From: an uncultured Candidatus Saccharibacteria bacterium
Lineage (GTDB): Bacteria; Patescibacteriota; Minisyncoccia; UBA6257; 2-01-FULL-56-20
Direction of reading: 5' to 3'
DNA: 64,000 bases
NCBI GenBank assembly: GCA_964456235.1
Contig: CAYWDX010000001.1
Coordinates: 201,210 to 265,209 of the forward strand
Under the pieces are notes generated by a model that was not told the origin of the DNA, searched no databases, and saw only the letters and a list, made by a program, of their open reading frames with translations. Shown one piece after another: positions 7,192 through 36,099 of the stretch. Position 1 is the first letter of the stretch. Each line of letters begins with the position of its first letter. The position numbers and the translations under genes are program-made.

Positions 7192-8043
7192 ATGGGGACG
7201 CTCGAAAAGAAAACTCTTTGGTCAATCCTCGTCGGGGTTGTTATTCTCGGAGGTCTTTTAATCTATGTCTTCACCGGGAATCGTCACCCTGTCCAGAATG
7301 GCAATACCCAACCAACCTATGCGCCGAAGGGCGAGCTCGTTTCGGGTTTCCCGTCTAACTTGCTTCTCGATTCAAGCGCACCCATAACGCAGAGCTACTC
7401 CATGCATTACCCGTCGGGCGCCGTCCAGTATACCGCAGAATACCAGACGGCGCGCGATGCGGTCAGCGTGATCGCGGGGTACCAGACGCACCTCGGCGCC
7501 ATGGGCTGGAACGTGAGAATAAATTCGGCGGTGCAGACAAAGGCGATCGGCCTTTCGGGCGCTACCTCGACGGCATCAATTCTGGTTACTGCGGCACAAA
7601 TGCCACAAGGATCGGATGTGACGGTGAGCTACACGCTGAACGGCGCGAGTGATGCTAGCGTCGCGGGCAGCCCGCTTACTATAAAGAGCACTGACAACCT
7701 CTCGACAGTTCCAGCGCCGCTTACTGATCTCGCCGACTGGAGCCACGTTCATCCGTATGGCATCCAGACGCGTCAGCTCGCTGACGGTGGTACGCAGTAT
7801 CTCGCAAGCTGGAACACCGCGCATATGCCGCAGAATTATCAATCATTGAAAACGTACCTCACGGCCCAAACAAACTACGTACTCGTGCGGGATTCGTTTG
7901 ATGCGGCAAAAGGATTTTCAATGCATTTCACCCAGGGCTCTACGCTACTCGGCGTCATCGCGACGCCGATGCCAAAATCAGGATTTTTTACGATAACGTT
8001 TTCGCTCTACGAACCCGCTCACTCTCTATCATCAATGCCATGA
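7192..8043 (+). CDS. Hypothetical membrane-anchored/secreted protein
   Basis: N-terminal hydrophobic segment WSILVGVVILGGLLIYVF. The upstream part of ORF 6781..8043 is antisense to folA and therefore not coding. ATGA overlap with the next gene. Confidence 0.55.
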   Translation: MGTLEKKTLWSILVGVVILGGLLIYVFTGNRHPVQNGNTQPTYAPKGELVSGFPSNLLLDSSAPITQSYSMHYPSGAVQYTAEYQTARDAVSVIAGYQTHLGAMGWNVRINSAVQTKAIGLSGATSTASILVTAAQMPQGSDVTVSYTLNGASDASVAGSPLTIKSTDNLSTVPAPLTDLADWSHVHPYGIQTRQLADGGTQYLASWNTAHMPQNYQSLKTYLTAQTNYVLVRDSFDAAKGFSMHFTQGSTLLGVIATPMPKSGFFTITFSLYEPAHSLSSMP

Positions 8044-10628
8044 AGCATGTAACGAAAATCGCGGCCGTAGGATTTCTCGTCGCGGTCACGGCGGTTGCCG
8101 CCGTGAGCTTCGCGCCACATCGTTCGAATGCCCAGAGCGCTCCGGCCATCACACTTTGCGCTGGGAATTCTTCTCTGTCTGGCGGAGGCTCTAACGCTTA
8201 CCGCCGATTCGATGTGCAGTGCGTGACTGGGCCCTCGGTAAGCCTCTGGCACGGGATGGATCCTCAAACGATCACCATGAGCTGGGCTGGGCCGTCAACC
8301 TATACCGGACAAGATTTCAGCATCGCTTTTCAAGACAGCGAGAGCAATTCGGGTACGGGATGTTTTAACGGCGGGGGCAGCAACCCAAATTCAACGTACG
8401 CGACGACACCTCCGGTGAGCGCGGGTGGCGGGAGCGACATAGCCGTGAACGGCGGGTCTAACACGCCCGAATGTTTTTCTGCAAACATCATTTACAACCC
8501 CGGTTTCGTGAACAATGCGACGATCAATGGCGCCACTCTGTTCTGCTCAGGTAACACCTGCACCGTTTCACTTTCCACAAACGTGACGTCCGCCGGGGCA
8601 ACGTGCACCGTTGACTCTCCAACCGTCACATCCGGACAGGTGGCGACGTTCACCGTCACTCCTTCGGGAACTTTCACGATGACCAAAACAACTTCGCGTT
8701 TCGCTTTCATCGTGAAGCCGCTCCAAAATCTTGCTTCGGCGATTCAAGGATTCTTTAGTCCGCGCGCATATGGGAACCAGGCGCCGATACTGCAAAATGG
8801 TGGAGGCGGTGGCGGGGGTGGAGGAGGTGGCGGCACGGGGACGACCACGCCCAACTATTCATGGAACGCGAACCCGTCAGGAATGATCGCCTGCGGTAAT
8901 GCGGCGACGTGCACCACCGCACCACTTACCGCTTCGATCGCGCCCGGCCAGATCACGACCGTCGTCCAGAGCCAGAGCGGCGCGACTTCCGTGACCGCAA
9001 GCTGCCCCGGCGTCACCGTCGTGGGTGCGCCCGGAACCATCACCGTGAATTCGCAGAATTCCCAAACCGGCCAGCCGGTTGCGGCGACCTGGGATTTCCC
9101 GGATGCGTATGATCCATGCCAGAGCGCATCATGCTCAAACTTGACGTCTGCCACCTATAACAATGTTCCTTCTGAAAGCACTTACGAGCCAATTCCTTCG
9201 GGTTCAAGTCAACAAGGCCAGTTCGCTTTTAATACTTCGAGGGGCTTTGCTTCTATGGCGTTTGCTCCAAATTTCCTGAAGGGACTCGTGAACATTGCTG
9301 CTGCATACACCGTAGCACCGGGGCCCCAATACTTGCCCTCCGGTGGGACCGTTGCGTTTACTATTAATTGGGATCCTATCGCTGCACTCCAAATTTCTGC
9401 CGGAACGTCCGCGCTCACTTCTTCAAGTACGAATGACACGATCACCATCACGAACACCGGTGCGCCAGGATCGAACCTCACGTGGACTTCGAGCGTGAGC
9501 TACAGCCAGGGAAATAACTGGCTCACAGTTTCACCTGCTTCTAACGGAGCGGGCTTGGTCAACGGAACTTCTGGTAACGTATCGCAAAATGTGACGGTTA
9601 CGGCAAACCCCGCGGCCGTGGGCAACGTGCCGGGCACTTACAATGCGACGGTTTCCTTTGTCGGGAACTCGGAAACGTCATGCGCCGATAATATAGGCTG
9701 CCCCCTTCCCTCCACGCCACTTTCTGTTTCTCTCACTATCCCGAATCCCCCGCCGCCAGGCTCTTCGGTGAGCGGCGTGAGCGTTAGTTGTGTGCCGAGT
9801 TCGATCCAGGTGCAGCAGACGTCGGCATGTACCGCCGTCGTCTCGGGATCCGGCAGCTTCAATAACACCGTCGTTTGGAATACTAACTTTGGGACAATTA
9901 ATTCGAGTGGCGTTTACACCGCTCCTTCAAATGCGACGGGCACGGCGACCGTCACCGCGACCTCGGTCCAGGACAGTACACAGTCTGGAACGGCGACCGT
10001 GCAGGTTAGCGCGGCCGGATCCGGAATCCCGGGCAACGGCGCGAGTACGGTTACGAGCGTTACGATTAGTTGCAATCCGAGTCAGGTGAACACAAACGGC
10101 GTGAGCTCGTGCACGGGAGTCGTGAATGGCACCGGCAACCCGAGCCAGGCTATCACGTGGAGCACGAACTTCGGCTCGATCAACAGCGCCGGGACCTATG
10201 TTGCCCCTGGCGTCGCAGGAACCGCAACGGTTTTCGGCACTTCCGCCCAGGATCCAACCAAGAGCGACAACACAACGATTGATGTTACCACTCCGTCTGC
10301 TCCGCCCGGGCCGCCCGGCGGTGGTGGTGGAGGCGGTGGAGGAGGGGGTGGCGGTGTTGGTGCCCCAAGTTGTACCTTCTCGATCCAGCCGAACCGCATA
10401 ATCCCTCCGGCACAAGCGACCGTGAGTTGGTCTTGCACCAACAGTCCGACGTGCACACTCTCTGACGGAACGAACCCGCCGATGCCGGTGAATGCGACGC
10501 AGAGTATCCTCATCAGCCCAACGCGCACCACCGTCTACACGCTCTCCTGTTCCAATGCCGGCGGATCGTTTAACGCATCGAGCACGATCGTGGTCCAGGG
10601 ATCAAGAATTATTGAGATCAATCCGTAG
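8040..10628 (+). CDS. Large secreted surface protein with Ig-like (Big_2-type) repeats and two poly-Gly linkers
   Basis: Signal peptide MKHVTKIAAVGFLVAVTAVAAVSFA. Repeated TATVTATSVQD.T.SGTATV motifs. G13 and PPGPPG-G13 tracts are encoded by mixed GGN codons. Rich in S/T/N/G. Confidence 0.7.
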   Translation: MKHVTKIAAVGFLVAVTAVAAVSFAPHRSNAQSAPAITLCAGNSSLSGGGSNAYRRFDVQCVTGPSVSLWHGMDPQTITMSWAGPSTYTGQDFSIAFQDSESNSGTGCFNGGGSNPNSTYATTPPVSAGGGSDIAVNGGSNTPECFSANIIYNPGFVNNATINGATLFCSGNTCTVSLSTNVTSAGATCTVDSPTVTSGQVATFTVTPSGTFTMTKTTSRFAFIVKPLQNLASAIQGFFSPRAYGNQAPILQNGGGGGGGGGGGGTGTTTPNYSWNANPSGMIACGNAATCTTAPLTASIAPGQITTVVQSQSGATSVTASCPGVTVVGAPGTITVNSQNSQTGQPVAATWDFPDAYDPCQSASCSNLTSATYNNVPSESTYEPIPSGSSQQGQFAFNTSRGFASMAFAPNFLKGLVNIAAAYTVAPGPQYLPSGGTVAFTINWDPIAALQISAGTSALTSSSTNDTITITNTGAPGSNLTWTSSVSYSQGNNWLTVSPASNGAGLVNGTSGNVSQNVTVTANPAAVGNVPGTYNATVSFVGNSETSCADNIGCPLPSTPLSVSLTIPNPPPPGSSVSGVSVSCVPSSIQVQQTSACTAVVSGSGSFNNTVVWNTNFGTINSSGVYTAPSNATGTATVTATSVQDSTQSGTATVQVSAAGSGIPGNGASTVTSVTISCNPSQVNTNGVSSCTGVVNGTGNPSQAITWSTNFGSINSAGTYVAPGVAGTATVFGTSAQDPTKSDNTTIDVTTPSAPPGPPGGGGGGGGGGGGGVGAPSCTFSIQPNRIIPPAQATVSWSCTNSPTCTLSDGTNPPMPVNATQSILISPTRTTVYTLSCSNAGGSFNASSTIVVQGSRIIEINP

Positions 10629-10721: not shown

Positions 10722-12587
10722 TTACTGGAAAGCGACGAGGGAACACTGGGCGTACATGCATACGCCAATGCGTCCGTCGTTCGCCGAAAAGAAGCCAGCA
10801 CCGAGGAGTGCGCTCGTCGCGGTGAGCGGCGTCGCAACTCCGTTCGCGTCCACCTTCACAAAACGCGTGAGGCGGGCATTCGTATCGGCGTAAGCGACGA
10901 TGAATACCTGATGCGTCTCATCCGCGGCGAGCCGAAATGGCACGCCGGGGACGAGGCCTTGCAGGTTCACCGTGCGCGTGACCGTACGCGAGGAGAGCGA
11001 CACCACCGCGAGGAGCTGGTCGAAGCTGCTCAACACGGCCGCGTTGCCCGATGACGCCCCCGCATTGATCGCCGCCACCTGCCATCCACCGCTCGTCGCG
11101 TTGGGCAGCTGGGAGGAGCGAGTGAATCCGGTAAGCGCCGTCGTACCTCGAAGCGCCATCCCCGCCGTGTTGAAAACATACAGCGCGGGCGGCGAATCGT
11201 CCTTCGCGTAAGAAACTACGTCGAGTTCCCCGCCAACCAAAGCCATCGCGAGCGACCAGGGGAGGTTCCCAGCGTTGGCAGAAGTCGGCACGAGGGTGGT
11301 TTGGCTTGGATCGAAACAGGTCACCGCATTGCTGTTTGGCTGCGTGATGCAGGCCTGCTTCGATTTCGCCGCTACTCCGAATGCCTCTGTCCCACTATTG
11401 AGGCCGGCGACGGGATTTCCGGTCGATGGGTTGATGACCACCGAAGGATGTCCGATCAACGTCTGAGCGGAAATCACATACCCGGTCACGTCATCAACCG
11501 CGATTGCTGAATTGCCTCCAGGAAGGAAGGTGCGGTTCAGGGTGCCATCTGCGTTAAAGTAGATCGCCCCTGCGCTGCTCCCACTAGCATTCCCTTTGGC
11601 GAATTGGAAGAAGGTGCCATTCGCTGGATTCTTCGTCGCCGTGTTTTGGTCGCCGAGAAGCCCAATCGAACTAGTATTCGAAGTCGCACCGTTTGGGTCG
11701 CTCACTGAAATGTCGATCCAGCCAGCGGCCTGCTGCGGAGTTCCGAATGGCAACCCGATTGCTATCGAGGTCGGGCTGACGGTTCCCATGAGCACCACAT
11801 CGCCGAATGAAACCGCTGGTGCTATGTGGACCGTTTGCCCGGCGGCGAACCCCGAGCCGTTGATGGTTACCCCAAGAGCGGCTGGAGCGCCCGCGACGGC
11901 GAAATAGACGGTCGTGCGATTCAGCGAGTTGATCTGGAGCGCCGTGATCGTTACGGTTGCCGTCGCGGACTTTGTTGAGTCAGCAACGGACGTCGCCGTC
12001 ACGAGCACTTGCTTTGCGTTCGATACCGCAGGCGCCGCGTAAAGACCCGACGAGTTCACCGTGCCAGTTGGGGTGGTGTCACCTTGCGCGGCGTTTCTCA
12101 CCGACCAGGTAACCGACGCGTTCGCACTATTCGTGACCGTAGCCGCGAATTGCTGCGAACCGTTCGATGGCACCGTCGCGCTCGTTGGCGAAACAGCGAC
12201 CGTGACGGGGTTGACCGCTACGGTTGCCGATCCCGACTTCGACGCATCCGCGACCGCGGTCGCCGTGATCGTGAAGGTCGTGGCCGTTGCAACCGATGGA
12301 GCCGTGTAAACGCCGCTCGCTGTGATCGCGCCGACGGTCGTGTTACCGCCCGCGACACTGTTCACCGACCAGGTGACCGCCGTGTTCGTTGAATTGGTTA
12401 CGGTTGCCGTGAACTGCTGCGTGGCCCCCGTGTTGATCGTCGTCGGCCCCGCTGGCGAAACCGATACCGTGATGATTGGCGTGATTTGGGCCGACGTGTT
12501 GCCACTCGCGCCACCACCGCCGCAGCCTGTCAAAATGAACAGGCAGGCGGCGATCGCGAGTATCGCATTTACCGGAAGCGTCTTCAT
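10722..12587 (-). CDS. Surface lipoprotein with tandem Ig-like repeats
   Basis: Lipobox LTGC after a signal peptide (MKTLPVNAILAIAACLFILTGCGGGG). Tandem ~95-aa repeats of the TATVTNS.N..VTWSV type, also visible as nucleotide-level repeats. Confidence 0.7.
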   Translation of the reverse strand: MKTLPVNAILAIAACLFILTGCGGGGASGNTSAQITPIITVSVSPAGPTTINTGATQQFTATVTNSTNTAVTWSVNSVAGGNTTVGAITASGVYTAPSVATATTFTITATAVADASKSGSATVAVNPVTVAVSPTSATVPSNGSQQFAATVTNSANASVTWSVRNAAQGDTTPTGTVNSSGLYAAPAVSNAKQVLVTATSVADSTKSATATVTITALQINSLNRTTVYFAVAGAPAALGVTINGSGFAAGQTVHIAPAVSFGDVVLMGTVSPTSIAIGLPFGTPQQAAGWIDISVSDPNGATSNTSSIGLLGDQNTATKNPANGTFFQFAKGNASGSSAGAIYFNADGTLNRTFLPGGNSAIAVDDVTGYVISAQTLIGHPSVVINPSTGNPVAGLNSGTEAFGVAAKSKQACITQPNSNAVTCFDPSQTTLVPTSANAGNLPWSLAMALVGGELDVVSYAKDDSPPALYVFNTAGMALRGTTALTGFTRSSQLPNATSGGWQVAAINAGASSGNAAVLSSFDQLLAVVSLSSRTVTRTVNLQGLVPGVPFRLAADETHQVFIVAYADTNARLTRFVKVDANGVATPLTATSALLGAGFFSANDGRIGVCMYAQCSLVAFQ

Positions 12588-15173: not shown

Positions 15174-15701
15174 TTAGAATTCGATCAGGGATTTTGCTTT
15201 TTTGCCTTCGGCGAAGGGATGTTTGATCTCGCGCATCTCGGTTGCGAGGTCGGCGCGGTCGATGAACTCTTGCGGGGCGCCGCGGCCGGTCATGAGGAGT
15301 AATTTTTCTTCCGGATAATCATCCACGGCGTCGAGAACTTCCCGGACGGTGAGGAGGCCGAGCGAAGTTGCGACATTGATTTCATCAAGCACGATGAGCG
15401 CCCACTTGCCAGATTTTTTTTCTTCGGCAAATGCGGCGAGCGCCTGCCGAGCCGCCTCGCGATGCTTTTCGATGGGAAGTTTGTCGCCCAAGATGCCGAC
15501 GAAACCGAGACCCATCTTTCGTATTTCAAATTTTTCTTTTGGGATGTTGAGCTGCGCCGCGAGCCCGTCTTCACCCGAAACCCACGGGCCCTTGATGAAC
15601 TGAATCATGAGCGCCGCTTTCCCCCGACCCATCACCCGCACCATCTGGCCAAGCGATGCCGTCGTCTTCCCTTTCCCATTGCCGGTAAACACGATAATCA
15701 T
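15174..15701 (-). CDS. cobA: Cob(I)yrinic acid a,c-diamide (corrinoid) adenosyltransferase, CobA/BtuR type
   Basis: MIIVFTGNGKGKTTASLGQ (P-loop) plus conserved CobA/CobO core. The longer ORF N-terminal extension overlaps a tRNA and is rejected. Confidence 0.8.
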   Translation of the reverse strand: MIIVFTGNGKGKTTASLGQMVRVMGRGKAALMIQFIKGPWVSGEDGLAAQLNIPKEKFEIRKMGLGFVGILGDKLPIEKHREAARQALAAFAEEKKSGKWALIVLDEINVATSLGLLTVREVLDAVDDYPEEKLLLMTGRGAPQEFIDRADLATEMREIKHPFAEGKKAKSLIEF

Positions 15702-15775
15702 GGTGGGCACGCCTGGATTCGAACCAGGAACCGGACGTGTATAAGACGTCTGCTCTGCCGTTGAGCTACATGCCC
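15701..15775 (-). tRNA. tRNA-Ile with anticodon TAT (UAU), CCA encoded
   Basis: Reverse complement GGGCATGTAGCTCAACGGCAGAGCAGACGTCTTATACACGTCCGGTTCCTGGTTCGAATCCAGGCGTGCCCACCA folds as a canonical 75-nt cloverleaf with anticodon loop CUUAUAC. Confidence 0.65.
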
Positions 15776-15817
15776 TTCTGCTTGTCCCATGGCCCCCGAG
15801 GGCCCACAAACACGGTA

Positions 15818-16414
15818 TTACTTGTTTACTATAGCATCAAACCGGTCCATCGCCTGACCAGCCTGCGCGTTGAAATTGTTGATGGCGTTCACGTCGGTGT
15901 TGATTTGGTTCACGAGCGCGGTCACTTTGGCGTCGGTACTCCCACTTGCGCCCGTGAAGCGGCTGCGGAGCGTCTCGAGCAGTTGCTCAAGGTCGCCACT
16001 ATAATTGATCAGCTGGTTGATGAGCGCGAGGCGGTTTGAAATTGACTCGAGGGCGGCCTGCTGCGCATTGAAATTTGAAATGTTCGAAAGATTTTTTGTC
16101 ATTTCGCCAACCTGCCCAGAAAGCGCGATCGCCTGGTTGCGAATTTCTTCGCTCTGCGCGACGAGGCTTGTCGTGAGCGTGAGCGCCTGGGTGTAATCCC
16201 CCTGCTTATCGAGCTCGTTCACACGCTTCAGATCTTCGGTTGACTGGTTCGAAATATTCACGATGTTCTGGGCGATCAACGCCCCCTGAAGACGAGCGTC
16301 AGTGAAATTTTGCGGCACCGCGCCACTTCCCCTCGTGAACTGCGCGATCGCATATCCTCCCGCGACGATCGCGAGGAAGGCGAGAATGATTTTGGTCTTA
16401 CGGGACCTGAACAT
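15818..16414 (-). CDS. Hypothetical membrane-anchored coiled-coil protein
   Basis: N-terminal TM (IILAFLAIVAGGYAIA) followed by a low-complexity, helical Q/N/L-rich region. Confidence 0.5.
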   Translation of the reverse strand: MFRSRKTKIILAFLAIVAGGYAIAQFTRGSGAVPQNFTDARLQGALIAQNIVNISNQSTEDLKRVNELDKQGDYTQALTLTTSLVAQSEEIRNQAIALSGQVGEMTKNLSNISNFNAQQAALESISNRLALINQLINYSGDLEQLLETLRSRFTGASGSTDAKVTALVNQINTDVNAINNFNAQAGQAMDRFDAIVNK

Positions 16415-16543: not shown

Positions 16544-16617
16544 GCGGGTATCGTATAACGGCATTACCGCAGGTTTCCAACCTGCTGACAGGGGTTCGAC
16601 TCCCCTTACCCGCTCCA
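16544..16617 (+). tRNA. tRNA-Gly (anticodon TCC), CCA encoded
   Basis: GCGGGTATCGTATAACGGCATTACCGCAGGTTTCCAACCTGCTGACAGGGGTTCGACTCCCCTTACCCGCTCCA closely resembles the E. coli tRNA-Gly(UCC) layout. Confidence 0.85.
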
Positions 16618-16789
16618 AGCCCTTGACATTTCTGACCAAATATTCCGCGACGATAAATATCCCCCAGAAAACTGCCTGCGGTTTCTTTCAGTGTAGGTGG
16701 TTATCTCATTCCTACAAGAGACGAAACGGGAATGGGTCGAACCCTTCTTCTATGGGGATAGGTTCTGGAAGGGTCGGGGTGAGATCTGT

Positions 16790-16922
16790 TTTGCAATGCA
16801 TACCGCTAACGACATGTGCGTTCTCGATTCCATCGGCGGGGACATACAGTGTGACAGTGACCAACCCAAATCAACCAGGCGGCGTTACCGCGAGTGCATC
16901 GGCGACGTTTGCGGTGCAGTGA
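16790..16922 (+). pseudogene. Orphan C-terminal fragment paralogous to the C-terminus of the 32469..34547 secreted protein
   Basis: Frame ends ...TCAFSIPSAGTYSVTVTNPNQPGGVTASASATFAVQ*, compared with ...SFTTSFANPGTYSVTVTNVPAGASSQSASCAVTIQ* at 34547. No intact N-terminal part is present. Confidence 0.5.
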
Positions 16923-17384
16923 ACATCGGCAGCCGATCCAGGCCCGTATCGCAGGGATAAGCAGTCGTCGTGCGACTCATGTTGACAATATCGGGTAGGG
17001 TGTTCCGCGCAGCAATTATCTTACGGGAGGACGCAAAGCAGCCACGAATGAGTGAGCGCACAGAAAACCAAGTGAATATACACTCCGAGCTGCCACGCAA
17101 GTATTCCTGGAACCAATAATATCGTTGCGATCCTAGCGTGGCCAGACTTGTATAGTTGAATGATAAGGAAAAGCTCCGCTAGGAAAGCGACATTCATGAC
17201 CGCGGAAAGCAAGATGCACAAGATGATGGCTATTACTCGCACCCAATCGACTCGATTGTTCGTCGCAATCGGTGTCGAGGCGGAGCCTCTGTCATTCATA
17301 GACTTAATTAAAGAGCACCTGCAGATGTTGTCAAGTGGGCCTGGCCTACCGCACGACTCTCTTCGATAGATGGTTATGGCACGT

Positions 17385-17458
17385 CTGGCGTCATAACAAA
17401 ACGCGCCTTCGTAATCCGACACCAGTTGGTTATGAAGGCGCGTTTTGTTATGACGCCA
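17385..17458. repeat. 23-bp perfect inverted repeat (GCGTCATAACAAAACGCGCCTTC) with a 26-nt spacer
   Basis: Both arms read from the sequence; located in the degraded region downstream of tRNA-Gly. Confidence 0.8.
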
Positions 17459-17529
17459 AGCCCGTCTCGGAAGACGCGCCGCATCGAAGCTGGGTGCCTG
17501 CGTGGCGAGCGCCTTATATGTAGGCCTGA

Positions 17530-17665
17530 CGGGGCTCGGTTCCTTGCGAAAGAACACTTGCGCTCCACCCGCAAATGGTTCGCAGTACAGACGATGCTCG
17601 GGGAAGAGCGCGATGATCTGCCGTGCAATTCGGTTCTTGCCTCCGATATAAGGGAGCGGGCCTGT
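17530..17665 (-). pseudogene. N-terminal remnant of a Dam-family (D12 class) N6-adenine DNA methyltransferase
   Basis: GPLPYIGGKNRIARQIIALFPEHRLYCEPFAGGAQVFF matches the Dam motif X/I region. The frame then diverges and no DPPY motif follows. Confidence 0.5.
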
Positions 17666-17961
17666 GCGCATGAAATTGGAGCAGCCTCGGAAACGCCTGC
17701 TCCTGCGAGCCGAAAGGAGGCACCCGTGAGGTGGGTGAGCATAAAACCCGCAAACTGACTCATGAAGAATGATCACGCGGCTTCAGGGATCGCAGGAAGC
17801 AACGGAATATTCCCCGCTGTTTCCTTGTGATTCTCGAAAAAGGTTCGAACGTCGCGGACAATGCCGCTCAAAAGACAAGCAAGACAGGGCCGACTTTGAC
17901 AAAAGTTCATTTTCACTGTATTATATCGCCAGTACTAGATCAATTGAAAAAGGAGGGACCT

Positions 17962-18756
17962 GTGTCCCAACACGAAGATAAAAGTGAAGAAACTGGCGCG
18001 ACTGGGAACCCCTCCTCAAAAGAGGGTTCACCCAGCCAAAACCCCAAACAAGATCTTGTCCCAGCAGAACGCTACTCATTGACGCCGGCAAATCCAATCA
18101 TCGTTGGACTTTCCAGAGCATTTCATTGGACTCCGGCCACGGCGATCACTCGCATCGAGCAAGCACTTCCCGACAAATTTGAACAGCAAGTGTATCTTGG
18201 GGTTGCGGAGAGTTTCCGCATTCATCCAGAATCGCTTGCGAAGCTGCTTCGGCTGTATCGCGGGTCGAAGCCTCTTTCCGTCCACGACCTGGAACGCCGT
18301 CCGATGGGGCAGAATGTCGTTTCGAATTCATTCGGTGATTTTTCCGATTTTTTCGAGGCGTGCATGAACCTGGTGAAGGTTGTCGCGAAGGAATTTGAGG
18401 CGTTCAGCATCAACATGGAGTTCGCCGCTCGTATTGTGCTCGCATATGGACCCAACAATCCGGAGCAGGTGATCGAAATGATCGATGCGAATCTCGATGA
18501 GTGCTGCGATTTCTTCGGGATCAGCAAGTATCGAGGATACGGCGCGCGTCTTCGGATCTGCACATGGTATTTCGTCGATAGATTACTGCCCGAGCTCATG
18601 AACCGAGGGGTACCAAATGTTCTTGATCCGGATGAATTCATCGGCGACAGAGCGCTGCAACGCTATTGTCTCGGTGAAGAATCCGCATCGGAGCGCCGCG
18701 ATCCCGATTTTGAGCGGCAGCTCCACGATCTCCTTCATGGAGGAGGTGTTTCATGA
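17962..18756 (+). CDS. Hypothetical protein, first gene of a two-gene operon
   Basis: GTG start 5 nt after AAAGGAGGG. The ORF also remains open upstream to the GTG at 17827. ATGA overlap with the next gene; no recognisable domain. Confidence 0.5.
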   Translation: MSQHEDKSEETGATGNPSSKEGSPSQNPKQDLVPAERYSLTPANPIIVGLSRAFHWTPATAITRIEQALPDKFEQQVYLGVAESFRIHPESLAKLLRLYRGSKPLSVHDLERRPMGQNVVSNSFGDFSDFFEACMNLVKVVAKEFEAFSINMEFAARIVLAYGPNNPEQVIEMIDANLDECCDFFGISKYRGYGARLRICTWYFVDRLLPELMNRGVPNVLDPDEFIGDRALQRYCLGEESASERRDPDFERQLHDLLHGGGVS

Positions 18757-19913
18757 GTATCGAGCAACAGCTTCGGATGCAACTCTCAAAAGCGTTTGGA
18801 AGCACTCCGTGGGATGAAAACCCATTGGTGACCATCGGACTCAGCCATGCAATTTTGGGTCTTAAGGTTACCGACCAACAACTCTACCGAATCGTTCGTA
18901 GCTATATCCGTCAACTCGTGGCTGCGGTACATCCGGATGTAAACGTCGTGCGAACGGAAGTTCAGACGGATGATGCCAAGAAGATCCTCGTCGCGTTCGA
19001 TCTGCTCGACAGAGAAGAAACCTTCCTTAAGGCGTTGGAGGAGTTTCGCATTCTCAAGTCGGACGAGCGTTCTGAGATCGGCGTCCTCCGTGCTGGCGCT
19101 CGCAGTCTGAAGTCGCGCCTTGCGGGTATCGAAAACCAGATTGACGCGGTAGTTAGGGGTCAAAAAGCACTGGTAATCGAAAAGGGCATCTTTGCAAGAG
19201 AAAAGAGAGAACACGCGGTTATCGCGCAAGAGCGAGAACGAGAGAGAGAGGTGCTTTTGAGGCGAGTTTCTCACCTGAAGACTCAGATCGAGAACAAGCT
19301 CAATGAATCGCGCCCATGGAAACTCAAGTTCGAGCAACTGGCAACATATACCGCCAATCTCGGCAAAGAAAAGGGAGATGGCATCTTCGCTTTTGAGGCG
19401 CGGTGGATTGTTGTCGCGTATCTCCGACGCGGAGTCATATCCCGCTCTTTAACGGCCGTCGATCGATTCGGGACAGCTCGCAGGGAGTTCTCTCAGGCTG
19501 CACGGGACTTTCCTCTCGAGTTGCCTAAACTTCTGAACCTTTGGCAGAAAGTGGAAAAGAGGTTCGGGCGACCCGATGCGGGAGAGATCACGAAAGGAAG
19601 CAGACATTGGTCCCTAGGAATCAGCCTCATCCACCTGCGGGCAGGCGAACAGGAAGTGGTGTACGGCGATCGAACCGGGTCAAGCGGGCGGGTTATTGGG
19701 TCTATCCCACCTGCTGTATTGGGGTGTGTAAAACGCTCTCACCTCAAGAGTATCCTTGACCAAGACCATGCTTGGGGCGTCATGTCTCCTTTCTTGGTTA
19801 GGGGAGGGCTATTGCTCTCTATCTCTGTCGACCCCACTAAGCGGTATGTGTGGAGCCGGACTTGCCCGGAATTTCGCATCAACACCAAACGGTTCATCCT
19901 TGCCCTGGGGTGA
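18753..19913 (+). CDS. J-domain (DnaJ-like) protein with uncharacterised coiled-coil and C-terminal domains
   Basis: N-terminus ILGLKVTDQQLYRIVRSYIRQLVAAVHPDVN...AKKILVAFDLLDREETF has the helix II-HPD-helix III pattern of J-domains. The remaining ~300 aa have no known match. Confidence 0.6.
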   Translation: MSIEQQLRMQLSKAFGSTPWDENPLVTIGLSHAILGLKVTDQQLYRIVRSYIRQLVAAVHPDVNVVRTEVQTDDAKKILVAFDLLDREETFLKALEEFRILKSDERSEIGVLRAGARSLKSRLAGIENQIDAVVRGQKALVIEKGIFAREKREHAVIAQEREREREVLLRRVSHLKTQIENKLNESRPWKLKFEQLATYTANLGKEKGDGIFAFEARWIVVAYLRRGVISRSLTAVDRFGTARREFSQAARDFPLELPKLLNLWQKVEKRFGRPDAGEITKGSRHWSLGISLIHLRAGEQEVVYGDRTGSSGRVIGSIPPAVLGCVKRSHLKSILDQDHAWGVMSPFLVRGGLLLSISVDPTKRYVWSRTCPEFRINTKRFILALG

Positions 19914-19937
19914 TTGATCTTCATTATCACGGTGCGT

Positions 19938-19977
19938 GTTACCAGTAAAATGGTGGCACGCACCTTTTTTGTTCTTA
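19938..19977 (+). terminator. Rho-independent terminator
   Basis: GGTGCGTG ... CACGCACC stem followed by TTTTTTGTT, after the J-domain gene. Confidence 0.6.
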
Positions 19978-20183
19978 AACTATCCGGAGATCATGCTAAT
20001 AGTTCGCTTATTAATAAATAAAAGAAAGGGCCGCCAGCAATGTGACGGCCCGAAGGTAGAAAACTTGCGTATGAGTACGCCGAGGCGAATTTCGCCAGAA
20101 CCGGTTGGGACCGGAGATAAATGAAAGTGATTATTACAATGTAACTACAATTAGTTTAGGGCTTTATCTATCTGGCCACAAGC

Positions 20184-32468: not shown

Positions 32469-34547
32469 ATGATAGATGTGAAGAAGTTTGTCAGCGCCTT
32501 CTTGATTTTGGCCGCCTTGACGGCTTCCGGGGTGCTGCTCGTGAACTTCTCCGGCCGAATGCCGGCCGCTCCGACCGCCGGATCTATCACGCAGAATGGC
32601 TCGGTCCCAACGAATGCCTTCGCCCCTGAAAGCGCCTCTCTCCCGAATGATGCATCCGGGGGTACCGACATTAATGCTGCTATCACCTCTGACCCTAACA
32701 ATCTCACGAATCAACTGGCTGATTCGCTCCTTACGAACGTGATCACGGCGAACCCAAACGGCCCGCAGGACGATGGCAGCGGCGACGGGTTGTTGACACC
32801 ACCCGATCCCAATGCGGTGATTGCCGGCATCGACCCGAATGTTTACCGAAAGGTGACAATCCCTGACTGGGATTTTGAGGCGGCGATGCTTTCAGCTCAC
32901 ACCTCGGTGGCGGCGTCGAATTCTGACATCGCTCATTATGCGTCCGACGTAAGTTCCATCTTGGGCGACGTCAACCGCCAGGCAACCGCATTCGATGCGC
33001 AATCCACCGGCGAAGCCGACCTTGCGGCTTTGCATTCGCAAACTCAAACTTCGATTCAAAAATTGGCGAGTCTTACGATTCCAAAAGATCTTGCGAGCTT
33101 CCACAAGAATCTCGTCAACGTTTTGGTGTATCAAAAGAATGCACTCGCGCTCGTCGAGTCAGCTTCGAACGATCCCTTCAGGGCATCTCTCACGCTCGAA
33201 GCAGAGACGCCGAAATATCAAGTCGCTGCGCAGAAACTTCAGAAGGCCGCACAGGCCGCCGAAGCAAGCGGCGTGCTTTCGCTCCTCCCCAAGGATTCGT
33301 CAAACGGCGAAAATCGTTTATTGGCTGCCGTTCATTCGCTTATCGGCATTCCCACCGCGCACGCATTCATCGTCTTTGACCCAATAGCCGATGCGCAGAC
33401 GACGATCACGGCAACACAGCTCATCCTGCAGATCGTGAAGAGCGCGCTTTTACAGATTCTTAAGAATACTCTGATCACAATCATCCAAAACCGCGTTTTG
33501 GGTTTTATAAAAAATAACGGAAATCCGAAGTTTATTCAGGATTGGGGGCGATATGTTTCGGATGCATTTAACTTAACTGCGGGCGGCGCTCTCGGCCAAA
33601 TCGTTCCTGGTCTTTGCAATAATTTCAGCCCTCAAGTGACGCGGTGGCTTCAAAATTCTTTCCCGGGGGCGAGCATCATTCCTGGCGGAACATCGCTGAA
33701 CGGTGCGGCAGGAACAAACTGCTCCCTCCAAGGCGTAGCCGCGAACCCAAATTTCTATAACAACTTCTCGGCCGCGGGGCCGGACGCAGGATTTCAAGGG
33801 TTTATTTCATTGCTTAGTCCACAGAACAATCCCTTCGGTGCCTTCGCGGAAGCGCACGATGAAATATCCTTCCTTTCGAATGCTGCTGCAGGCGCCACTC
33901 AAAACAAAGCGGTATCTTCTGGTGGGTTTATAGGCCAAGAAATTTGCGGCGACGGATCAACGCCGAGCTCCGTTTTCACCTATTGCCAGGTGGGGCACGT
34001 TAATGCGAACGGGAGTTCCTGCGTGAACAGCAATGGATCAACCGTGGGAACGCCTTTCAGGCAAAGGGGTTGTGCTGATAGTAACCAGCCGTTTGTCACC
34101 GCTCCGGGAAGGACGATCGGCGATACGCTTTCGAATACTCTCGGCGCGAATATACACCTCGTCGTAAACGCTAACGACATTATCGGACTTGCGGCCACGA
34201 TTGGCGCGTCGCTTCTCGAGCAATTTGTAGCAGCTGGCATCCACGGTTTGATCACGACCCAGCCCGCAGGCACGGGTGCTGTTCCGACCACCGCACCGAG
34301 TCTGCCGCCGTTGGCTTGCATCCCAAGCCAACTCATTGCTTCGAGCAGCGATGTACTTGTTCTTAGTAGCACGGGGGGCGATGGCCTCAATTATGATTGG
34401 GTTGCGTTCGGTGGCAATCCTTCGAGCGGATCTGGAGTTTCATTTACAACATCATTTGCCAATCCGGGGACTTATAGCGTGACCGTTACGAACGTCCCGG
34501 CGGGAGCAAGCAGTCAGAGCGCATCCTGCGCCGTCACCATCCAATAA
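32469..34547 (+). CDS. Large secreted/membrane-anchored protein, first gene of the T4SS-like operon
   Basis: N-terminal TM FLILAALTASGVLLVNF, 692 aa with S/T/N/G-rich extracellular domains. Its C-terminal motif PGTYSVTVTN also occurs in the orphan fragment at 16790..16922. Confidence 0.6.
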   Translation: MIDVKKFVSAFLILAALTASGVLLVNFSGRMPAAPTAGSITQNGSVPTNAFAPESASLPNDASGGTDINAAITSDPNNLTNQLADSLLTNVITANPNGPQDDGSGDGLLTPPDPNAVIAGIDPNVYRKVTIPDWDFEAAMLSAHTSVAASNSDIAHYASDVSSILGDVNRQATAFDAQSTGEADLAALHSQTQTSIQKLASLTIPKDLASFHKNLVNVLVYQKNALALVESASNDPFRASLTLEAETPKYQVAAQKLQKAAQAAEASGVLSLLPKDSSNGENRLLAAVHSLIGIPTAHAFIVFDPIADAQTTITATQLILQIVKSALLQILKNTLITIIQNRVLGFIKNNGNPKFIQDWGRYVSDAFNLTAGGALGQIVPGLCNNFSPQVTRWLQNSFPGASIIPGGTSLNGAAGTNCSLQGVAANPNFYNNFSAAGPDAGFQGFISLLSPQNNPFGAFAEAHDEISFLSNAAAGATQNKAVSSGGFIGQEICGDGSTPSSVFTYCQVGHVNANGSSCVNSNGSTVGTPFRQRGCADSNQPFVTAPGRTIGDTLSNTLGANIHLVVNANDIIGLAATIGASLLEQFVAAGIHGLITTQPAGTGAVPTTAPSLPPLACIPSQLIASSSDVLVLSSTGGDGLNYDWVAFGGNPSSGSGVSFTTSFANPGTYSVTVTNVPAGASSQSASCAVTIQ

Positions 34548-34548
34548 C

Positions 34549-36099
34549 ATGCTGAAAAAACGACTGCCATTTATTCTTCTTGCCGGAATGGCGGCGGCGT
34601 TAGCGGCGGCTGCGCCGGCGCACTTCGCGCATGCCAGCTGGTTCGGCCTCGATACCATTGCCGGCGGGGTGATTGGTTATATCGCCTATGGACTTATCTA
34701 TATCATCGCGACCATCGCGGGGGTAGCGATTTCGATTATTACCTATCTCATCAGCATTCTTCTCCAGGTTAGCTCTAACGTCGTGAACACCGCAGCCGTG
34801 CAGGTTGGGTTTTCCGTGATGCTCGCGATCGCGAACCTTGGGTTTGTTCTTTTCATCATCATCATAGCGATCGCCACTATTCTGAAGAGGGAATCGTATG
34901 GAATGAAAAAATCGCTGTGGCGATTGGTCATCGCTGCCATACTCGTGAACTTCAGTCTCGTGATCGGGGGAGCGGTTATAAATTTTGCGAACATCATTAC
35001 CAACCAATTCTTGCAGCAACTTCCCGGCGGTGGAGGCAATAATGGGCCTACAACCTTCGCGCAAGAACTCGCTGGAGCTTTCGCGCCCCAAAAAGGACTT
35101 CTCGTACTTTCGAGCTCCGGGAATAATGTTGCCGGGAACATTGCGGGGTCAAACCTCGGAGACGTGAATGCCGGGAGTACTATCGCAAGCATGATCACCC
35201 CTGTCGTGAGCGTCTCTGCTGCTGCAGCTCTGCTTATCGCAATCATTATTACCCTCGCGGCATTTGCGACCATGTTGCTTATCCGATACGTGTATCTTTC
35301 TATACTCCTCATCGTGATGCCATTCGCTTGGCTCATGTGGGTATTTGAAGGGACGAAGGGACAATTCAAAAAGTGGTGGGATTCTTTCATTCGATGGTCG
35401 TTTTTTGCCCCTATTGTAGTATTTTTCCTTTGGCTTTCGATCGCGACGGCCCAAAAACTAAATACCAACAACAACGACAACCCGATAGGGTTTCTCGCCG
35501 GGACTAGTTATACCGCAAACACGTCGAATCCGATCACCGGGGCTCTCGGTTCAACGTTTGGATCTTTCGTTGCCGCCTTCGCCTCAACGTCGCTCCAAGC
35601 AGTGTTAGTTGTGGGGCTTGCGGTGGGCGGCATGATCGCGGCGAATAAGTTGAGTATCATGGGTGCGAAAAATGCTGTTGGCGCTATGGACGGTGGAGCG
35701 AAAGCTTTTAGAAATTATGTTGTAAAGCGGGGCAAAAGGGGAACGTTAACCGTTGCCCAAAAAACTATGGGTGGCGTAGCTAGGGTTGCAGCGCCTTCTC
35801 CTGGAGCACCGCCAAATGCATGGAATAGATTCCGAGGTAGTGTTGCGACGCGATTTTCTGGAGCCTCTGCTAACTTGGGTCAGGCTGCAACGAGTTCGAA
35901 TCTCAAAACTAAAGGTTTGGCTGCGACGGTCTGGGGTGGCATAAAGCAAGGGTCTGGATTATTTAAGGGCGCGAGCAAGAGCAGTAAGGATTGGGAATGC
36001 CAAGTTTGTCATAATGTTCAAAGAAGTACGATTAAGCCGACGACGGCGTGTCAAAATTGCCACTCTCCTGCCGCTCTAGCTAAATGGACTCAAATATAA
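34549..36099 (+). CDS. VirB6/TrbL-like polytopic membrane protein with C-terminal CxxC...CxxC
   Basis: Signal peptide, then at least 6 hydrophobic helices in the arrangement typical of TrbL/VirB6. C-terminal CQVCHN...CQNCHS. Confidence 0.6.
   Translation: MLKKRLPFILLAGMAAALAAAAPAHFAHASWFGLDTIAGGVIGYIAYGLIYIIATIAGVAISIITYLISILLQVSSNVVNTAAVQVGFSVMLAIANLGFVLFIIIIAIATILKRESYGMKKSLWRLVIAAILVNFSLVIGGAVINFANIITNQFLQQLPGGGGNNGPTTFAQELAGAFAPQKGLLVLSSSGNNVAGNIAGSNLGDVNAGSTIASMITPVVSVSAAAALLIAIIITLAAFATMLLIRYVYLSILLIVMPFAWLMWVFEGTKGQFKKWWDSFIRWSFFAPIVVFFLWLSIATAQKLNTNNNDNPIGFLAGTSYTANTSNPITGALGSTFGSFVAAFASTSLQAVLVVGLAVGGMIAANKLSIMGAKNAVGAMDGGAKAFRNYVVKRGKRGTLTVAQKTMGGVARVAAPSPGAPPNAWNRFRGSVATRFSGASANLGQAATSSNLKTKGLAATVWGGIKQGSGLFKGASKSSKDWECQVCHNVQRSTIKPTTACQNCHSPAALAKWTQI

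Follow-up and report, generated by a model that had tools for sequence, protein, structure and literature searches.

A chromosomal tRNA-Ile(UAU) gene in a Paceibacteria-type genome as the probable replacement for lysidine-dependent decoding of AUA

How the isoleucine codon AUA is read is a question that most bacteria answer in the same way: a tRNA with a CAU anticodon is converted to LAU (L, lysidine) by TilS. This enzyme is generally regarded as specific to bacteria, near-universal among them and essential, and it has been discussed as a target for both antibacterial compounds and genetic-code engineering. About 98% of annotated genomes have been cited as containing TilS (PMC12514573). Here, we analyzed a 64-kb stretch of contig CAYWDX010000001.1 (the whole stretch is called the window below) in which a tRNA-Ile gene with an encoded UAU anticodon lies at 15701..15775 on the minus strand, and this gene raises the question of how AUA is decoded in the organism that carries it. 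We consider it probable that it is a functional, vertically inherited chromosomal tRNA-Ile3(UAU) gene of a Paceibacteria/Minisyncoccia host of the candidate phyla radiation (CPR), and that its product is the AUA decoder of this host, most likely replacing the TilS system.

ARAGORN identified four tRNA genes in the window, one of which was a tRNA-Ile with anticodon tat at 15701..15775 (-). Rfam agreed with this call: the match of RF00005 at 15775..15704 (-) covered positions 1-71 of the 71 in the model, with a score of 67.7 bits (E = 1.4e-12 for the whole window; gathering score, 29) and no non-canonical pairs flagged. This score is far above chance level. Thus, the hand fold by which the initial annotation had assigned a tRNA-Ile with UAU anticodon to these positions stands, and the strand, which had been absent from it, can be added. 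The gene comprises a 72-nt body (15704-15775) and an encoded CCA (15701-15703). It opens with GGGCATG-TA-GCTC-AACGGCA-GAGC-A-GACGT-CTTATAC-ACGTC, and the remainder after ACGTC reads CGGTT-CCTGG-TTCGAAT-CCAGG-CGTGCCC-A-CCA. The anticodon TAT (UAU in RNA, ATA on the plus strand) occupies 15741..15743 (-) within the 7-nt loop CTTATAC (15745-15739 (-)), which in the RNA is C32 U33 U34 A35 U36 A37 C38, so that the encoded T34 A35 T36 is accompanied by U33 and A37. The acceptor stem has 7 bp, the T stem 5 bp and the variable loop 5 nt. Reading of the sequence also revealed A73, C4:G69, U12:A23, C29:G41 and A37, all of which we take to be classical identity elements for the IleRS of E. coli. Minimum free energy folding gave a near-cloverleaf with a misfolded D-arm, which is uninformative beside the covariance model. 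An independent assembly, the Logan contig L001, contained the identical tRNA and the identical junction with the downstream cobA gene, and an assembly artefact peculiar to the window record is therefore ruled out.

The codon that this tRNA would read is in use in the window. Counted over the 45 genes there that have 200 codons or more, AUA accounted for 110 of 17,683 codons (6.2 per 1000, or 9.7% of the Ile codons), and it was present in nusA, dnaA, dnaN, glyA and the H+-PPase gene. When 23 AUA positions were compared with their orthologues on three contigs of related organisms (L122, L123 and L125), the aligned residues were I in 19 cases, V in 9, L in 3 and a few others, M in none and never S, and the same profile was found at AUU/AUC positions. 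AUA therefore needs a decoder and reads as a hydrophobic, Ile-like residue, and no sign of its reassignment could be observed in these alignments.

The genes of the window, assigned by Pfam, include those for DnaA, DnaN, YidC, NusA, FtsH, TyrRS, SHMT, FolD, ThyA and RuvB, as well as those for a class A penicillin-binding protein (PBP1), an H+-pyrophosphatase and two ATPases, one PilB-type and the other VirB4/TraG-like; a Pfam match was lacking for many of the large open reading frames (ORFs). The window is bacterial chromosomal DNA from around the replication-origin genes. Its FtsH showed 76-86% identity to proteins labelled Minisyncoccia, Candidatus Paceibacterota or Candidatus Liptonbacteria, and on the basis of these nearest named relatives the window was placed in Paceibacteria/Minisyncoccia within the Patescibacteria (CPR). 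GC content around tRNA-Ile(UAU) was not anomalous (the maximum in the window was 0.605 at 10-12 kb and the minimum 0.448 at 26-28 kb).

The three related contigs were retrieved via their FtsH. In L122, a contig of 888 kb (FtsH 84% identical), the order was ftsH, a small ORF, cobA, tRNA-Ile(TAT), a 197-aa gene, tRNA-Gly(TCC) and tyrS. In L123 (914 kb, FtsH 80% identical), cobA had been lost and tRNA-Ile(TAT) was retained at the same place, and in L125 a DUF5654 gene separated the tRNA from cobA. A four-way alignment of the window with these contigs showed a nearly invariant tRNA between two scrambled flanks, and the differences among the four tRNAs were compensatory, affecting the acceptor pairs 5:68 and 6:67 and the T-stem pairs 49-51:63-65.

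Similar genes could be identified much more widely. A pattern in which only the D-arm and the loop CTTATA were fixed (U12:A23 is thus fixed by the pattern itself) was scanned against 185,579 species-representative genomes and matched at least 120 loci; ARAGORN called a tRNA-Ile(TAT) in 115 of the 120 among the matches listed. In the 112 canonical-length UAU tRNAs of this set, taken from loci of 8 kb, stem positions left free by the pattern were 95-100% paired with 3-7 pair types each, and A73 was found in 110, C4:G69 in 88 and C29:G41 in 41 of them. The tRNA-Ile(UAU) of the window thus belongs to a large tRNA family under structural selection. We also searched all JGI metagenome contigs for a C34 probe, in which the window-type D-arm and anticodon arm carry CAU as the anticodon. 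This probe occurred once (L127, 1009-1041 (-)), as a 5' half-tRNA followed by unrelated sequence, for which ARAGORN reported no tRNA and which could be a truncated gene, the remnant of an att site or an intron-interrupted tRNA. The U34 version of the probe was present in 26 of 117 ARAGORN-called tRNA-Ile(UAU) genes, a collection different from that of the C34 count, and the two counts argue only against the idea that T34 arose in a CAU gene by error or as a recent polymorphism. In its anticodon loop, identity elements, conservation and the AUA use of its host, the gene agreed with tRNA-Ile3(UAU) in everything that could be tested.

Whether such a tRNA replaces the canonical system or merely accompanies it depends on what else the genome encodes. 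Position 34 is T, where the canonical tRNA-Ile2(CAU)/lysidine system has C34. ARAGORN found no CAU-anticodon tRNA in the 64-kb window, neither the PP-loop motif SGGxDS nor its relaxed form [SG]GGxD[ST] occurred there in any of the six frames, and none of the 40 larger window ORFs scanned had a TilS or IleRS match in Pfam. In many bacteria tilS lies upstream of ftsH; no tilS adjoined ftsH in the window or in L122, L123, L125 or L126, and the stretches of 20 kb that are syntenic in L122, L123 and L125 contained neither TilS nor a CAU tRNA. The PP-loop motif had four matches, none of them TilS-like, in the 120 loci of the genome scan, which together make up ~0.9 Mb over ~115 genomes and have no power to demonstrate absence. 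Inspection by eye of the 22 CAU tRNAs in these loci recognized initiators and E. coli/B. subtilis-like elongators and left a 'GCCAGGG' type unassignable, and no conclusion was drawn from them.

A view of entire genomes was provided by a 2026 study of tRNA introns in Patescibacteria (PMC13011429), whose Table S2 gives tRNA counts per amino acid for 95 complete genomes from both tRNAscan-SE and ARAGORN. We tabulated the tRNAscan-SE count for Ile against the 'Met' column of ARAGORN, which represents CAU tRNAs because ARAGORN names tRNAs by anticodon. Two CAU tRNAs are just sufficient for initiator and elongator Met. Among the 45 genomes with at least two Ile tRNAs, 40 had no more than two CAU tRNAs and 5 had at least three, whereas each of the 50 genomes with a single Ile tRNA had at least three (Fisher p ~1e-21, a value that is not corrected for shared ancestry and describes the pattern rather than a probability). 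The distribution followed classes. Written as (Ile, CAU), the counts were (2, 2) in all seven Dojkabacteria, UBA1384 and WWE3 and (3, 2) in the sole Doudnabacteria genome, and all 12 Microgenomatia had 2 or 3 Ile and at most 2 CAU tRNAs; one Ile and three or more CAU tRNAs were found in 34 of 36 Saccharimonadia, in all seven JAEDAM01 and in Kazan. Within Paceibacteria, 14 genomes were at (2, 2), 5 at (1, 3) and 1 at (2, 3). With these counts as a prior, a Paceibacteria genome that has tRNA-Ile(UAU) is very likely to lack tRNA-Ile2(CAU). Where tRNA-Ile2(CAU) is absent, TilS is left without its only substrate and is therefore expected to be lost, as in Mycoplasma mobile (PMC1635315, PMC3575796). 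Judged from the counts at the level of the clade, the loss of tRNA-Ile2(CAU) and TilS in the genome of the window is likely.

Several points weigh against this reading. Table S2 gives counts per amino acid and not anticodons, and the second Ile tRNA is taken as UAU because AUA must be decoded and because the classes concerned agree with those of the pattern scan. The window is 64 kb of a genome that is probably near 1 Mb, and tilS and tRNA-Ile2(CAU) could lie elsewhere in it. No IleRS was found among the scanned window ORFs, and the enzyme of this organism is presumed to accept U34. A consensus scan, to which CPR promoters may not conform, found no sigma-70-like promoter on the minus strand near the tRNA. 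Finally, the two systems can coexist, as 5 of the 45 two-Ile Patescibacteria also have three CAU tRNAs. Such coexistence is the basis of the alternative that tRNA-Ile(UAU) is a redundant decoder acting alongside tRNA-Ile2(CAU) and TilS, in which case the dependence on TilS would be relaxed at most and not lost. One of the 15 two-Ile Paceibacteria is among the five genomes just mentioned, bacteria carrying both systems were listed by Taniguchi 2013 (PMC3575796), and the small part of the genome seen in the window would be compatible with a second system outside it. On the other hand, the third CAU tRNA is lacking in 40 of the 45 two-Ile genomes, and the window and the syntenic stretches of its three relatives are free of TilS and CAU tRNAs; we regard redundancy as unlikely.

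The tRNA might also be an accessory gene that was brought in by a phage or another mobile element and boosts AUA decoding, rather than a core gene of the chromosome. The same pattern matched at least 120 loci on IMG/VR viral contigs, with a tRNA-Ile(TAT) of the same D-arm in 118 of 120 among the matches listed, and a probable insertion lies ~1 kb away from the gene, beside tRNA-Gly (16.6-20.1 kb). However, the position of the tRNA between the 198-aa gene and cobA/DUF378/ftsH is constant in relatives whose FtsH is 80-84% identical, and L122 has the tRNA without the insertion; moreover, the best viral match among those listed shared 62 of 72 bases and had a long variable arm, and GC content near the gene was normal, all of which makes a mobile origin very improbable. 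Equally slight is the chance that this UAU tRNA has an identity other than Ile or serves an altered decoding, be it a reassigned AUA, a Ser-accepting tRNA of the allo-tRNA type or a decaying pseudogene. Long-variable-arm tRNA(UAU) genes do occur at other loci, but the gene of the window combines a standard 7/5 cloverleaf and a variable loop of 5 nt with a full-length Rfam match without flagged non-canonical pairs, the elements A73, C4:G69, U12:A23 and C29:G41 and a strong, compensatory conservation, and the AUA positions of its host align with I, V and L, never with M or S. A long-variable-arm or allo-type tRNA(UAU) in particular is ruled out here by the 5-nt variable loop, the 7-bp acceptor stem and the 5-bp T stem.

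If tRNA-Ile(UAU) is the AUA decoder of this organism, AUA would be read by ordinary U34-A pairing, and IleRS would recognize and charge the tRNA by means of A35, U36 and A37 together with the usual tRNA-Ile identity elements. It would most likely replace, and not supplement, the CAU->LAU (TilS) system. From other systems with tRNA-Ile(UAU), we infer that the IleRS would have to accept U34 and that the misreading of AUG via U-G wobble would have to be suppressed (PMC3575796). The modification state of U34 belongs to the same inferred part of the scheme, and so does the supposition that the rest of the genome lacks tilS and tRNA-Ile2(CAU).

A genomically encoded UAU anticodon for isoleucine was described as rare in the initial annotation, and this holds for classical sets of bacterial genomes: 17 bacterial genomes with tRNA-Ile(UAU) were counted in the tRNAscan-SE 2.0 paper (PMC8450103), TAT-anticodon tRNAs from 19 bacterial species are held in tRNADB-CE (PMC4013482), and nine species with a TAT gene and without tilS were reported by Taniguchi 2013 (PMC3575796). 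It does not hold for viral contigs, as seen above, or for the lineage of the window, as 76 of the 120 loci among the matches listed from species-representative genomes carried an explicit CPR/Patescibacteria name. These names included Levyi-, Davies-, Gottesman-, Roizman-, Dojka-, Kaiser-, Adler-, Jorgensen-, Niyogi-, Nomura-, Taylor-, Harrison-, Portnoy-, Uhr-, Magasanik-, Kerfeld-, Berkel-, Azam- and Yanofskybacteria, Paceibacterota, Minisyncoccia and 'Saccharibacteria'. Taken by itself, the locus of the window is ordinary and typical of its class; most Paceibacteria appear to have such a gene. In the same list, 23 of 120 loci came from other phyla or from archaea (including Woesearchaeota, Aenigmatarchaeota and Bathyarchaeia), and 21 of 120 were labelled just 'bacterium' or 'uncultured Gammaproteobacteria'; these labels are doubtful because several of the genomes have tRNAs identical to those of named CPR genomes.

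With regard to such labels, identical or near-identical tRNA-Ile(UAU) genes were found in three pairs of loci (L095/L049, L043/L027 and L031/L092), each consisting of an 'uncultured' metagenome-assembled genome and a named Levyibacteriota or Adlerbacteria genome. The 'uncultured' member of each pair is titled 'uncultured Gammaproteobacteria' or 'uncultured Candidatus Saccharibacteria' and comes from the binchicken third-party annotation (TPA) assemblies, whose record-title taxonomy looks unreliable. A different type of UAU tRNA, with a variable arm of ~20 nt and a class-II-like shape, was observed on contigs of Planctomycetota, Rhodospirillaceae, Melainabacteria and Acidobacteriota (L011, 6688-6779; L083, 6734-6825; L100, 3960-4053; L007, 2817-2905) and was frequent on viral contigs (loci L241, L180, L175, L147, L135, L185 and L148).

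The 3' end of the tRNA overlaps the gene that follows it. This gene (15174..15701 (-), 175 aa) encodes a CobA/BtuR/CobO-type ATP:corrinoid adenosyltransferase, and its residues 1-175 matched positions 4-172 of the profile PF02572 (CobA_CobO_BtuR) with 169.9 bits (E 7.7e-50). A15701 is at once the final A of the tRNA CCA and the A of the cobA ATG (15701-15699), an overlap of 1 nt. The initial annotation had noticed that the CCA end and the start codon share this nucleotide, and the match of PF02572 from the first residue and the same junction on L001 confirm it; a later start of cobA is implausible because the match extends to residue 1 and the P-loop begins at residue 6. Since the tRNA abuts cobA with no spacer, the two are probably co-transcribed, and the 3' half of the tRNA contains the region in which ribosomes would bind and initiate translation of cobA. 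The sole Shine-Dalgarno-like element for cobA is an AGG at -13 to -11. If the two genes are co-transcribed and the tRNA is then processed at its 3' end, the cobA mRNA left behind would start at the AUG or within two bases of it, and one may speculate about a mitochondrion-like 'tRNA punctuation' that gives a leaderless cobA message.

A tight junction of tRNA and cobA was also present in L122, where the tRNA end, CCCA-C-ATG, is one base shorter and lacks CCA. In the window, CCA follows two of the four tRNAs (Ile and Gly), and its encoding at tRNA-Ile(UAU) may be partly fortuitous. As at position 15701 of the window, ORFs with 120 codons or more that start 0-3 nt past the 3' end of tRNA-Ile(UAU) were found at several unrelated CPR loci (L048, 4064-4137; L054, 4443-4515; L092, 4018-4090; L096, 1060-1132; L072, 6785-6858; L093, 5915-5986; coordinates are those of the tRNAs), although orthologous loci (Levyibacteriota) are among them and the ends called by ARAGORN vary by 1-3 nt. 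Such starts suggest tRNA-punctuated mRNAs that would be leaderless or near-leaderless.

On its other side, 42 nt upstream, the tRNA is preceded by a conserved ORF of 198 aa without a Pfam match (15818..16414 (-)), whose 197/198-aa orthologues adjoin the tRNA in L122, L123 and L125. Next to it is a tRNA-Gly(UCC) (16544..16617 (+); ARAGORN and Rfam), a divergent neighbour in the same conserved block. Scanning for promoter and terminator consensus sequences around tRNA-Ile(UAU) gave nothing on the minus strand, with counts at the level of shuffled sequence. The spacer that separates the 198-aa gene from the tRNA contains a short GC hairpin without a T-run, GGCCC-TCGG-GGGCC (15791-15804 (-)), which was not called by the consensus scan; a far longer perfect hairpin is present in the spacer upstream of the tRNA in L122. 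The hairpin of the window may be a terminator or a processing signal. Just past tRNA-Gly(UCC), the region 16620-20130 is missing from L122, in which tRNA-Gly directly adjoins both the 197-aa gene and tyrS. This region includes an ORF with no more than a 36-residue match to D12 N6-adenine methyltransferase (17021-17776 (-)) and two ORFs without a Pfam match (17827-18756 and 18753-19913, both (+)), and it may represent an element that integrated at tRNA-Gly, or what remains of one.

Two further observations concern the proteins of this lineage. Several ORFs of very large size (516-862 aa), whose N-termini resemble signal peptides and which have either no Pfam match or a weak PKD match, are located at 8040-10628 (+), 10722-12587 (-) and 32469-36099 (+), and presumably encode CPR surface proteins. 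A close homologue of FtsH of 1040 aa (P0072) is 430 residues longer and has LAGLIDADG and intein-splicing Pfam matches (PF14528 and PF14890); it appears to be an intein-containing FtsH from a related Paceibacteria genome.

The conserved, syntenic tRNA-Ile(UAU) and the clade-wide anticorrelation with a third CAU tRNA together suggest that a large share of bacterial diversity decodes AUA without lysidine. We are inclined to believe, with some reserve, that approximately half of the Patescibacteria, the organism of the window included, have dropped tilS and tRNA-Ile2(CAU) and use a U34 tRNA for AUA, the classes affected including Paceibacteria, Microgenomatia, Dojkabacteria, ABY1 and WWE3. If this is true, they would form the largest bacterial radiation known without lysidine, in parallel to DPANN-type archaea, and a lineage-wide adaptation of IleRS and/or the ribosome against the misreading of AUG would be implied. 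No paper linking CPR/Patescibacteria with lysidine, tilS or tRNA-Ile(UAU) was found in the open-access full texts searched, which is no proof of novelty; the scale of the pattern, a signature of UAU in place of Ile2(CAU) in approximately half of the complete Patescibacteria genomes, may be under-appreciated. For the annotation of this genome, it would follow that the assembly should not be judged incomplete if tRNA-Ile2(CAU) or tilS is missing from it.

Compared with the canonical tRNA-Ile2(CAU->LAU)/TilS system, the tRNA of the window shares the reading of AUA as Ile, the overall tRNA-Ile identity elements and A37; the difference lies in position 34, where T34 in place of C34 makes lysidine neither possible nor needed. 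Possession of both solutions is known from Lactobacillus casei, Cyanothece and Ferrimonas, which have a genomic tRNA-Ile(UAU) like that of the window but have kept TilS (PMC3575796), whereas the clade statistics favour its loss here. Phage-encoded tRNA-Ile(UAU) genes, abundant in IMG/VR, have the same anticodon and D-arm pattern, but many of them possess a long variable arm, and the copy of the window lacks this arm, is chromosomal and is syntenic across relatives. Another counterpart is tRNA-Ile2(UAU) of M. mobile, which likewise is a genomic UAU tRNA decoding AUA in a reduced genome and stands in for tRNA-Ile(CAU) and tilS (PMC3575796; Silva et al. 2006, PMC1635315). For that organism, it has been demonstrated that U34 is unmodified, that IleRS is adapted (Arg865) and that the ribosome discriminates against AUG, and a basic residue in place of a conserved Trp in the zinc-binding domain of IleRS enables the acceptance of U34 (PMC3575796). 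M. mobile is an isolated case within Mollicutes, whereas the CPR trait spans many classes of a radiation. In Bifidobacterium and Neorickettsia, tRNA-Ile3(UAU) replaces tRNA-Ile2(CAU) and tilS is absent (PMC3575796, PMC8450103); these bacteria use an IleRS2 of eukaryote/archaeal type, and the scanned ORFs of the window contained no IleRS with which it could be compared. Among archaea, Nanoarchaeum equitans and Korarchaeum cryptofilum, members of reduced or episymbiotic lineages without the C34-modification route (agmatidine), also have tRNA-Ile3(UAU) (PMC8450103), although their tRNAs are archaeal and the enzyme replaced is TiaS and not TilS. On the basis of these comparisons, the tRNA of the window probably works like the decoders of M. 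mobile, Bifidobacterium, Neorickettsia and Nanoarchaeum, and its host is probably a further member of the TilS-free group.

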